Source: Patescibacteria group bacterium (GTDB taxonomy: Bacteria > Patescibacteriota > Minisyncoccia > Portnoybacterales > UBA2143). Taken from it: DNA of 64,000 bases. Under the pieces are notes generated by a model. That model ran no database searches. It was given only the letters and a program-made list of their open reading frames with translations, and had not been told where the DNA came from. Numbering within the stretch: position 1 is the stretch's first letter; the number at the start of each line of letters is the position of its first letter. The DNA is taken from positions 65,980-129,979 of the forward strand of contig JAHJSM010000001.1 of NCBI GenBank assembly GCA_018830295.1, in the 5' to 3' direction. This document shows, one piece after another, positions 24,020-26,572 of this stretch. The translations under genes were made by a program, and so were the position numbers.

Positions 24020-26572
24020 TTATTGCCCGCAGCATTTTTTGAATTTTTTTCCGGAGCCGCAGGGGCAGGGGTCGTTTCGGCCTGCTTTTGTCGCGGAGGC
24101 CGTTTTGGGGACAGTCCCCGCAACGGGGACTGTCCCCAAGGGTTGATGCGCTATTGGAGCGTTGGGCGAAATAGAGACCTTGTAAATCATATTAACGACT
24201 GTTGATTGGATTGCCGCCATTAATCTTTGAAAAAGACGAATCCCCTCGTTTTTGTATTCCACCAACGGATCTTTTTGCCCGTAAGCGCGCAAGCGGACGC
24301 TGTCTCGCAAGTGGTCCATATTGTCCAAGTGGTCCATCCAAAGCGTGTCCAGAGAACGCAAGAGAACATATTTTTCAACGCGACGCGCGTTATCTTCGCC
24401 CAAATCATCTTCCTTTTTTTTGTACGCCTCCTCGGCTAATTTAATTAAATAATCAGAAACCTCGCCCTCGCTTTTCAGTTCCGCCAACGCCCGCGGCAAT
24501 TCCTCTGTTTGAAAAATACTCCCAATGATTTGACTAACTTCTTCGCGAGCGGCAATTTTCTTAATTTCATCCTTAATCATTTCCACCACTTCCGTTCTGA
24601 CATTCTTTTCTCTCAAAACCGCTTTTCGTTTTTTGTAAATCGTCTCCCTCTGCTTATTCATAACATCATCGTATTCCAAAATATGCTTCCGCGCGTCAAG
24701 ATTATATCCCTCAATCCTGCCCTGCGCCGATTCAATCGCTTTGGAAACCAACTTGTTTTCAAGCGGTTGGTCTTCAGGCACTTTCAGCATCTCCATCATT
24801 GACTTAACCCTGTCCCCGCCAAAAACGCGCATCAAATCGTCTTCCAAGGAAACGAAAAATTGACTGGAACCGGGGTCGCCCTGCCGTCCCGCTCTTCCCC
24901 GCAACTGGTCGTCAATCCGCCTCGCCTCGTGCCTCTCCGTCCCGATAACATGGAGACCGCCCAGCCCCGCCACTTCGTCATGCTTCGCCTCCTTTTCGCT
25001 TTCCTCCAAATCCCGCCCGCCTAAAATAATATCAACGCCCCGACCTGCCATATTGGTCGCGACTGTCACCGCCCCCTTCTGCCCCGCTTGAGCAAGAATT
25101 CGCGCTTCCTGTTCGTGGTTTTTCGCGTTAAGAATTTGGTGAGGGATGCCTTCTTTTCCTAAATAAGCCGAAAGCAGTTCGTTTTTTTCAATAGAAACCG
25201 TTCCCACTAAAACGGGCTGTCCCGCCTGGTATCTCTTTTTAATATCCCCAACAATCGCCCGCAATTTCCCATTCTCGTTTTTGTAAATGCTATCCGGCAA
25301 ATCCTCTCGGATCGCCGGCTTGTTGGTCGGAACCTCAACCACTTTTAATTTGTAAACCTTGTCAAACTCCTCGGCGGAAGTCAGAGCCGTTCCCGTCATT
25401 CCCGAAAGTTTTTCATACATCCGAAAATAGTTTTGAAAAGTAATAGAAGCAAGCGTGCGGCTTTCCTGTTGAACGCGGACATTTTCTTTCGCCTCAAGCG
25501 CCTGATGTAAACCGTCCGAATATCTTCGTCCTGGCATTAAACGCCCCGTGAATTCATCAACGATAATCACCTGCCCGTCTTTAACAACATAATCCCTGTC
25601 TTTTTTGAAAATAACCTCCGCCCGAAGCGCCTGTTCCAAATGGTGAACATAACGAATGCCGCCTTCTTCATAAATATTGTCCATTCCCAATATTTTTTCC
25701 ACCTTGTCAGTGCCTTCCTCCGTCAGAGTCACCGCTTTCATTTTTTCGTCCAAATTGTAATCGGCGTTCTCTTTCAACTGTGGCGTAATCCGACAAAACT
25801 GCTCATACATTTTCGTTGACTCCGCGTCAGGCATGGAAATAATCAGAGGCGTTCGCGCTTCATCAATTAAAATGCTGTCTATCTCGTCAACAATCGCGAA
25901 ATACGGCTCGCGTTGAGCCATCGCCTCCAAAGAAGGCGCCATATTATCCCGCAAATAATCAAAACCGAATTCGTTGTTCGTCCCGTAGGTAATATCCGCC
26001 AAATACGCCTCTTTGCGGACGACCTCCTTAAGGTTTTCCATTTCAACCGTAATTTCGTTTTCGTCAGGCGCTGTTTGCGGTTCAAAAATAAATGACTTTT
26101 CGTGATTAAGACAGGCAACGGAAATTCCCAAAAGATGGAAAATCGGACCCATCCAGTTGGCGTCTCTTCGGGATAAATAGTCGTTAACTGTGACAATATG
26201 AACGCCCTTGCCCGTAAGCGCGTTTAAGTAGGCCGCCAAAACAGAGGACAAGGTTTTACCCTCGCCCGTTTTCATCTCGGCGATCTGCCCCCGATGCAAA
26301 ACAACCCCGCCAATTAATTGAACATCAAAATGCCTCTGTCCAAGAGTTCTTTTTGCCGCCTCGCGCGCCAAAGCAAACGCCTCGGGAAGCAAATCATCCA
26401 ACGACTCGCCTTTCTCTAAGCGCGCCTTAAATTCCGCCGTCTTATCCTTCAACTCCCCATCGGGAAGAGAAGCAAACTCCTTTTCAAGTTCGTTAATCCT
26501 CTCAACTAACGGCCCAACATCCCTCAAATTCTTCTCATTAGCATCCCCAAAAATTTTAGTAAAAAATGACAT
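24020..26572 (-). CDS. secA: preprotein translocase ATPase SecA
   Basis: 850 aa. The N-terminus [10 protein letters not shown]...KTGEGKT is present. The C-terminal zinc-binding tail is [15 protein letters not shown]. Confidence 0.9.
   Translation of the reverse strand: [850 protein letters not shown]
24107..24137. repeat. REP-B hairpin embedded in-frame in the secA C-terminal linker
   Basis: GGGGACAGTCCCC-gcaac-GGGGACTGTCCCC. Translated on the minus strand in the secA frame it gives [10 protein letters not shown]. It lies 29 codons before the stop, between the body and the zinc-finger tail. Confidence 0.75.

Follow-up and report, generated by a model that had tools for sequence, protein, structure and literature searches.

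The subject of this analysis is a 64-kb stretch of DNA from a member of the Patescibacteria (candidate phyla radiation), referred to as a whole as the window; all coordinates are window positions. In its secA gene, a 31-nt element at 24107-24137 consists of two short palindromic units around a 5-nt loop and is translated in frame within the flexible linker that precedes the zinc-binding tail of SecA. The explanation that we favor, and regard as probable, is that this element is a resident copy of a repetitive extragenic palindromic (REP)-like dimer that was amplified in this lineage, and that the copy is old, unstable, and probably neutral. If so, a small-genome bacterium translates a REP-like hairpin as part of the regulatory tail of its essential SecA motor, which would be a compact natural case of selfish or structural DNA giving rise to protein length variation with the gene unbroken.

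Palindromic units in the secA reading frame

The plus strand of the element reads GGGGACAGTCCCC GCAAC GGGGACTGTCCCC. An inverted-repeat finder widened the arms to 16 nt (24105-24120 and 24124-24139), which are 100% complementary around a 3-nt loop. The secA gene is a minus-strand open reading frame (ORF) at 24020-26572, encodes 850 amino acids, and is the sole long ORF at the element. Its coding strand runs CCC TTG GGG ACA GTC CCC GTT GCG GGG ACT GTC CCC AAA through this region, with, in the reading direction of secA, unit 1 (GGGGACAGTCCCC, 24125-24137), the spacer GTTGC (24120-24124; GCAAC on the plus strand), and unit 2 (GGGGACTGTCCCC, 24107-24119), each unit encoding GTVP. The in-frame 10-amino-acid peptide reported in the initial annotation was confirmed in sequence, ORF, and translation. 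It occupies residues 813-822, after Leu, and is followed by 28 codons and the stop codon, which agrees with the "29 codons before the stop" given there when the stop codon is counted. The element thus lies wholly inside a known gene, and the zinc-binding tail keeps the same frame as the element upstream of it. All six frames of the element are free of stop codons, and one unit plus the loop amounts to 18 nt, or six codons. Bypass or recoding of the gene 60 or byp type, frameshifting, and splicing were considered and rejected, as the reading frame runs unbroken and without a stop codon across the element.

The position of the element in the protein was determined by alignment with known structures. 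The C-terminal 113 residues of SecA aligned with Bacillus subtilis SecA structures as far as ..IYKV, where the helical scaffold ends; the alignment resumed at GRNDPCPCG.. with the isolated zinc-binding domains 1sx0, 1tm6, and 1ozb (residues 831-850, encoded at 24023-24082). This terminal segment has the CxCx8CC/CH zinc motif after a variable linker and matches PF02810. Between IYKV and GRNDPCPCG (residues 800-830, encoded at 24083-24175), the PDB alignment was gapped throughout, and the element falls in this stretch. Judging from the alignment, the gapped stretch is the equivalent of the flexible linker domain (FLD) preceding the metal-binding domain (MBD), as these parts of the C-terminal tail are defined in PMC6620043, and the placement of the element in the flexible linker made by the initial annotation therefore holds. 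In 104 other Patescibacteria SecA proteins, the linker is 18-46 amino acids long (median, 25.5); in the close clade, it is 23-42 amino acids long, and in the window, it is 31 amino acids long. The SecA linker is, by these comparisons, hypervariable in length and sequence. Linker length was rejected as proof of an insertion, as the 31 amino acids of the window lie within the 18-46 of its relatives.

The element is not the only one of its kind in the window. The 13-mer GGGGACWGTCCCC, allowing one mismatch at most, matched nine times, against 0.00 in 100 shuffles, and a relaxed scan added the variant GGGGGCWGCCCCC at 17495/17513 and 22085. The family comprises six loci, namely 795-825, 2567-2596, 5868-5902, 17495-17525, 22065-22097, and the secA copy, all listed on the minus strand. 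All five loci but that in secA are intergenic, each lying 4-47 nt past the stop codon of a minus-strand gene. Genes neighboring the intergenic copies include infA, secD, and genes for DUF3800, FtsA-like, TrwB/VirD4-like, higA-like, and P-type ATPase products. The copy at 795-825, upstream of infA, has the 5-nt spacer GCCGC; that at 2567-2596 has a 4-nt spacer; and that at 5868-5902, 13 nt downstream of the stop codon of the TrwB/VirD4-like gene, has a 9-nt spacer. The copy at 17495-17525 has the variant stem GGGGGCWGCCCCC (GGGGGCTGCCCCC GCAAC GGGGGCAGCCCCC on the plus strand) and is terminator-like, being followed by a run of seven T residues (T7) and then by the secD -35 sequence TTGACA. As the initial annotation had noticed, its GCAAC loop on the plus strand is the same as that of the secA copy. 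The copy at 22065-22097, between the higA-like and P-type ATPase genes, is a hybrid of GGGGACAGTCCCC and GGGGGCTGCCCCC, and is also present in L209, an independent assembly described below.

The stems of the six copies are conserved, and the loops vary (GCCGC, TCTT, ATTCTGAAT, CGTCCGC, and GCAAC twice). In the hybrid copy, each arm is internally dyad-symmetric although the two arms differ, so the conserved entity is the 13-bp palindromic unit and not the hairpin between the arms alone. Palindromes of the form G4-N5-C4 occur 10 times in the 64-kb window and were absent from 871 kb of 80 unrelated secA-bearing metagenome contigs; they are not a general bacterial feature. All units of the window lie within 1-24.2 kb, with none in 24.2-64 kb, and they are almost always paired. 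The units of every copy read G-x-x-P, and in three of the other copies, a stop codon is found in the spacer or flank. As RNA, all six copies are predicted to fold with energies of -26 to -36 kcal/mol (z scores of -4.7 to -8.3), and the extended hairpin of the secA copy (24105-24139, minus strand; 16-bp arms and 3-nt loop) with -33.7 kcal/mol (z = -8.3).

A short GC-rich palindromic unit that is repeated (nine matches against none expected, in six hairpin loci) and that lies mostly between genes, just downstream of ORFs (five of six loci), is REP-like. In Di Nocera et al. (2013; PMC3733652), REPs tagged with GTAG/CGTC are described as short GC-rich stem-loops located mostly just downstream of ORFs, with a minority wholly inside known genes, often as dimers, in frame, and proposed to be neutral in flexible linkers or loops. 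The secA element, an in-frame GC-rich dimer in a flexible linker whose family is found mostly downstream of ORFs, is a new instance of this already published intragenic REP phenomenon; the available supplementary files of that paper do not contain SecA. By contrast, the secA copy has no GTAG/CGTC tag but is flanked by CCUU.../...AAAA; only two of the six window copies, those at 795 and 22065, start with (U)GACG. Each of its arms is a perfect 13-bp palindrome, its stem measures 13-16 bp compared with 8-9 bp in the CGTC REPs, and its host is a bacterium of the candidate phyla radiation. Because of the missing tag, the longer stem, and the self-palindromic arms, the secA element stands outside the tagged REP super-families. 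No Rfam family matched it at the gathering score.

Other known repeats resemble the element in part. Rickettsia palindromic elements (RPEs) lie in frame in unrelated housekeeping genes and are translated as extra peptide segments (PMC10969869); however, they are ~100-150 bp long, encode a conserved peptide of ~30-50 amino acids, and are specific to Rickettsia, whereas the secA element has 31 nt encoding 10 amino acids and an unrelated sequence. Membership in RPE-1 to RPE-10 was therefore rejected, as size, sequence, and host (Patescibacteria) all differ. In the REPIN/RAYT system, two inverted REP units form a hairpin that is amplified in a lineage and persists vertically, as outlined in PMC3116915 and PMC3337134. 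REPINs are ~100 nt long and tied to a single-copy RAYT gene flanked by REPs, whereas the units here have 13 nt and no Y1 transposase was found in the ORFs scanned. The highly iterated palindrome (HIP1) of cyanobacteria is described as a short palindrome over-represented by lineage that occurs in coding as well as non-coding DNA and shows conservation at the DNA level (PMC5861425 and PMC4390886). HIP1 has 8 bp and occurs about once per gene, compared with 10 almost always paired units per 64 kb here. With none of these 10 units in 24.2-64 kb, a HIP1-like hyper-abundance was rejected. Palindromes or hairpin elements that invade mitochondrial coding sequence and are translated are described for Nematomorpha, sponges, and green algae (PMC6649704 and PMC2800124); these belong to organelle genomes, are usually longer, and are unrelated in sequence to the secA element.

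Alleles of the element in related strains

We compared the 3' DNA of secA from the window with that of L209, L208, and L001 through L006, of which the clade B relatives were available with only 4-19 kb each. Consistent with the placement of the organism in the Patescibacteria, one cluster member bears the annotation Portnoybacteria. A neighbor-joining tree of the SecA core gave two clades with ~87% SecA core identity between them: clade A, with (window, P0001) and P0002, and clade B, with P0003, P0004, P0005/6, and P0007. In L209 (GCA_018820055.1), an independent assembly, the whole secA gene is identical to that of the window. In L208 (97% amino acid identity), a single unit is present (CCC TTG GGG ACA GTC CCC AAA), set within a 17-nt palindrome, TTGGGGACAGTCCCCAA; the gene is exactly 18 nt shorter at the element, and the linker downstream of the unit differs from that of the window. 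In L001 (99%), AACCCTTGGGGACAG is duplicated in tandem (15 nt), one C is changed to T, and a 24-nt deletion has taken away most of the second arm. Strains that are 97-99% identical thus already differ by whole-unit in-frame insertions or deletions in the SecA linker, and when secA is divided into 150-nt bins, that of the linker shows the greatest divergence between near-identical strains. Compared among secA alleles, the hairpin was strong in that of the window and L209 only, with a z score of -5.8 compared with -0.5 to -2.9 in the others.

In clade B, two-unit copies were found in the secA genes of L002 (GGGGACAGCCCCT-GAAGCAAT-GGGGACAGTCCCC) and L003 (GGGAGCTGTCCCC-ACTGCTTC-GGGGGTTGTCCCC). 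Both are decayed, without compensatory changes, and both have the same left (CAA YCY TYG|GGG) and right (CCCC|AAA) junctions as the window. The spacer of L003 matches that of L002 at 7/8 positions as the reverse complement and at 2/8 directly, and the center bases of the units are flipped; because of these two features, one of the two copies appears to be inverted. The loop of the window, GTTGC, resembles the first five bases of the clade B spacer (ATTGC/ACTGC). Since the element is homologous across both clades, it predates their split and is not a recent insertion in one strain. A metagenome scan for further secA alleles with the generic peptide pattern CGSGKKFK yielded no close relatives, the best among the matches listed being 59% identical.

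This allelic series is consistent with the following course of events. The dimer, in which a short loop separates two dyad-symmetric units of 13 bp (GGGGAC-W-GTCCCC), would have entered or arisen in secA before clades A and B separated. Slippage between its two near-identical units, which match at 12/13 positions as direct repeats, would remove 18 nt; the rearranged copy of L001 would stem from a short tandem duplication together with a short deletion; and recombination between the arms would flip the spacer. Within the close clade, the simplest path leads from the two-unit hairpin to the derived alleles, and the element would in this manner yield alleles that differ in linker length. It is probably tolerable in secA because the linker is hypervariable in length and sequence, because the unit is stop-free in six frames and always encodes Gly-x-x-Pro, and because 18 nt of unit plus loop can be gained or lost without a break in frame. 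The initial annotation had proposed a tolerated REP insertion. Tolerance and the family tie are borne out by the kept frame and by the five intergenic hairpins of the same family; the insertion, in turn, is not recent, and no empty site for it was found. Because of this missing site and because the clade B intergenic copies are of another type, AAGGGCWGCCCTT, we infer the direction of the insertion from family identity.

Several observations weigh against the reading of secA as the recipient of an amplified, neutral dimer. First, the stretches that L004 (clade A) and L005 and L006 (clade B) have at this site are about as long but contain no recognizable unit; 11 codons of L004 are ~45% identical to the element, a value obtained by eye only. 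A clean empty secA site was not found in any relative examined: the stretch whose absence from the SecA C termini of relatives the initial annotation proposed to look for was intact, reduced to one unit, rearranged, decayed, or unrecognizable, but never cleanly missing. Second, the clade B flanks (4-19 kb each) have the GGGGACWGTCCCC type in secA only, the intergenic type there being AAGGGCWGCCCTT, and the secA copy could accordingly predate the intergenic copies of the window or be their source. The initial annotation held that relatives with the peptide in SecA but without the family elsewhere would speak against an insertion, and this applies in part to L002, whose secA contains the unit exactly and whose 19 kb show no further GGGGACWGTCCCC, yet which carries the intergenic sister type AAGGGCWGCCCTT. 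Third, the loops differ among the window copies, so that there is no clear sign of simple copy-and-paste from a single master element, and no Y1 (RAYT/TIRYT) transposase (PF01797) was matched among the 20 ORFs of the repeat-bearing 24 kb, the window being 64 kb of a contig of at least 745 kb. Finally, the C-terminal tail of Escherichia coli SecA, although dispensable for translocation, modulates SecA by autoinhibition, and its FLD is autoinhibitory rather than inert (PMC6620043); neutrality is therefore an assumption.

Members of the AAGGGCWGCCCTT family lie next to secA in clade B (L002:6116-6145; L003:463-536; L006:542-571 and 1260-1289), and their core, GGGCWGCCC, is also contained in the window variant GGGGGCWGCCCCC.

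The comparison of alleles also bears on a local origin of the dimer, in which the linker natively had one unit, as in L208, and the second, inverted unit arose in place by template switching (quasi-palindrome extension) or by gene conversion from an intergenic copy, no complete element having been inserted. The single unit of L208 within its palindrome and the difference of exactly 18 nt fit this view, as do the perfect arms and variable loops of the copies, and the generation of hairpins by template switching is documented (bioRxiv 10.1101/2023.04.19.537475). The pattern of one unit versus two recurs upstream of secD, where the window has two perfect units and T7, and L222 (83% SecD identity) has one degenerate unit, GAGGTAAGCCCCC, and is 18 nt shorter. 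However, loss of 18 nt by slippage between 12/13 direct repeats is simpler than a gain, the two-unit clade B copies with a related spacer (GTTGC versus ATTGCTTC/ACTGCTTC) suggest that two units are ancestral, and the GCAAC loop is common to the secA and 17495 copies. We consider a local origin unlikely, and retain the older, two-unit dimer as the better account of the series.

The secD-upstream site of L222 was also examined as a possible empty site and rejected, as the degenerate single unit is present. The window (17433-17530) and L222 (196-293) have the same promoter-like site, TTGACA-N17-TAGATT, at this place. In L222, the spacer between secD and secF (1742-1876) contains units of another palindrome type, AAGGTCTGACCTT.

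The same unit in other phyla

Searching one genome per species for pairs of GGGGACWGTCCCC units with 1-12 nt between them, we obtained at least 120 stretches from many phyla. Among the matches listed, there were 163 unit pairs (115 direct and 48 inverted), many of which had an A-run and a T-run at their flanks. Among the 36 pairs examined in low-GC loci, ~11 were inside long ORFs; none split a gene out of frame, and no split ORFs were seen around these 36 copies. Alignments with Pfam and PDB indicated that the in-frame units are insertions in conserved proteins, with gaps of 11-15 amino acids exactly at the element. The hosts were MiaB of Omnitrophota with three copies in one gene, MetRS of Patescibacteria (11-amino-acid gap), a class I tRNA synthetase and ATP synthase gamma (15-amino-acid gap) of Saccharibacteria, a GT4 glycosyltransferase of Omnitrophota, CobQ of Planctomycetia, and a PKD protein. 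These in-gene double units are located at L016:4309-4863, L019:423-458, L053:3030-3058, L075:5057-5092, L049:2496-2528, L029:6900-6929, and L059:2564-2595. Scans of viral contigs, a control of low power, gave one match for GGGGACWGTCCCC pairs, none for GGGGCAWTGCCCC, and 11 for GGGGTCWGACCCC.

The MiaB genes of Omnitrophota were compared at L016:4300-4545, L226:10205-10450, and L227:1718-2974. Exact GxxP..GxxP double motifs were found in 26 of 120 MiaB homologues, at three loop sites, and other homologues have empty sites. The MiaB proteins of L016 and L226 are 76% identical, with 44% identity at the third positions of conserved four-fold codons. Yet the element AAAAT-GGGGACAGTCCCC-AAAAGGC-GGGGACAGTCCCC-ATTTT is identical between them at 33/33 nt at one site and at 30/33 nt at another. 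L227 has other spacers (TTC and ATGC) at the same protein loops. These results point to maintenance of the MiaB elements at the DNA level or to their recurrent acquisition.

These results open a wider reading, in which the secA copy is one instance of a class of ~30-nt coding-tolerant double palindromes (G4-AC-W-GT-C4) that spans Patescibacteria, Saccharibacteria, Omnitrophota, and Planctomycetota, colonizes the loops and linkers of housekeeping proteins, and is kept sequence-perfect by an active process. We put this forward tentatively, as a possibility with the odds against it. The active process could be mobilization or gene conversion by an enzyme that recognizes hairpins, for which a TIRYT-like Y1 transposase is a candidate. 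According to Di Nocera et al. (PMC3733652), the terminal repeats of TIRYT-type Y1 transposases share GGGGWSAS, and GGGGACAG fits this sequence. If true, small-genome bacteria would have in these units a general source of G-x-x-P insertions in their essential proteins, and of variation in protein length that leaves the frame intact. The in-gene occurrence across phyla may matter more than the secA case itself, and bears on how REP-type repeats spread and persist. The idea of a single universal recognition sequence was dropped, as other G4-NN-W-NN-C4 cores are amplified too. Because GGGGTCWGACCCC and AAGGTCWGACCTT are amplified elsewhere, the class would be broader than GGGGACWGTCCCC alone.

A gene for a 223-amino-acid Y1_Tnp protein (IS200/RAYT-like) is present at L226:5746-6492, 3.5 kb from the MiaB gene that carries two palindromic elements. 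Its flanks are inverted repeats of 21-28 nt, AAATAGGGACACATCCTATTT, and not the palindromic units; the core of these repeats, AGGGACAC, nearly fits GGGGWSAS, with A in place of the first G.

Function, direction of copying, and surroundings of secA

A selected function was weighed next to the passenger role that we prefer. The hairpin might stabilize the mRNA or be a site of its processing, might make translation pause ahead of the zinc-binding domain, or might be bound as double-stranded DNA by a dimeric protein. Its predicted stability would suit such roles, as would the dyad symmetry that the units keep even in the hybrid 22065 copy with its imperfect arm pairing, and the Omnitrophota MiaB units, which are conserved in DNA far beyond the identity of synonymous sites. 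By contrast, strains that are 97-99% identical have the hairpin destroyed or halved, the clade B copies decay without compensatory changes, and the copy has neither a U-tract, without which it is not scored as terminator-like, nor an Rfam match. The mRNA hairpin proposed in the initial annotation is thus very stable by prediction, but it is not conserved between alleles, which speaks against a selected RNA function. Given this allelic decay, a selected RNA or DNA function in secA seems unlikely, and we give such a function a lower chance than a local origin. As the hairpin is not conserved between alleles, the secA copy is probably a neutral or selfish passenger and a hot spot for insertions and deletions, with no selected function.

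A terminator at this site was rejected separately. Rho-independent terminators are GC-rich hairpins downstream of genes, which describes the 17495 copy with its T7, and a terminator scan listed only this copy. The secA copy and the four other copies, unlike such terminators, have no U-tract, and the secA copy lies inside an ORF; it is followed by AAAACGG on the secA strand and by AAGGGTT on the opposite strand.

The direction of copying could also be the reverse, with the unit being native linker coding sequence of secA and the intergenic GGGGACWGTCCCC copies of the window being derived from it or homogenized with it. The GGGGACWGTCCCC type is found in the secA of both clades and between genes in the window lineage only, with AAGGGCWGCCCTT in that place in clade B. 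However, only 4-19 kb of each relative was seen, the GGGGGCWGCCCCC variant and hybrid copies are likewise found in the window, and the 13-mer family is found in many unrelated phyla with no link to secA. We regard secA as the source as improbable, more so than a selected function, and keep to a family that was amplified in the lineage and is resident in secA. An error of assembly or sequencing, for example a misassembly provoked by the hairpin or an unnoticed frameshift, is next to impossible: perfect palindromes can provoke assembly errors and the L003 contig is a complete fold-back, but L209 is an independent assembly identical across all of secA, the same 850-amino-acid product is found under two NCBI protein accessions, the frame continues into the conserved zinc motif, and related alleles occur in four other samples, so that the frameshift or assembly error named as a danger in the initial annotation is not supported.

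The L003 contig (JAYEKG010000065.1; GCA_034660935.1) is a fold-back artefact of assembly or amplification; it is 100% identical to its own reverse complement over its whole length, so that its gene order is mirrored and secA occurs in it twice.

A second palindromic family, ATTCGGCTATC(G/C)GATAGCCGAA, forms a 21-23-bp palindrome and has five copies in the window, all intergenic (838-858, 17874-17894, 19629-19649, 23995-24015, and 29029-29049). The copy at 23995-24015 is located 4 nt past the secA stop codon and is probably the terminator-like hairpin of secA. Related hairpins, TCGGCTTT..AAAGCCGA, were found at 18928-18999.

The neighborhood of secA is a variable region. Downstream of secA, at 22144-23923, the window has toxin-antitoxin-type genes (HigB-like/HTH, and HTH with SocA_Panacea). 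L209 has a HicA module upstream of secA (L209:289-777), which the window lacks at that position, the two strains being otherwise identical. Elsewhere in the window, the region at 5915-12639 contains two TrwB/VirD4-like coupling-protein ATPases (one with a treble-clef zinc finger), an AAA_14/DUF4143 ATPase, and an FtsA/PilM-like gene, which suggests a cluster resembling those for type IV secretion or DNA transfer. Of the six palindromic elements, three are located inside or beside this region. At 32000-64000, the GC content drops from ~0.40 to ~0.30, and the genes are tightly packed, with almost no intergenic space and zero palindromic units. By synteny with relatives, this part of the window may be a glycan biosynthesis cluster.

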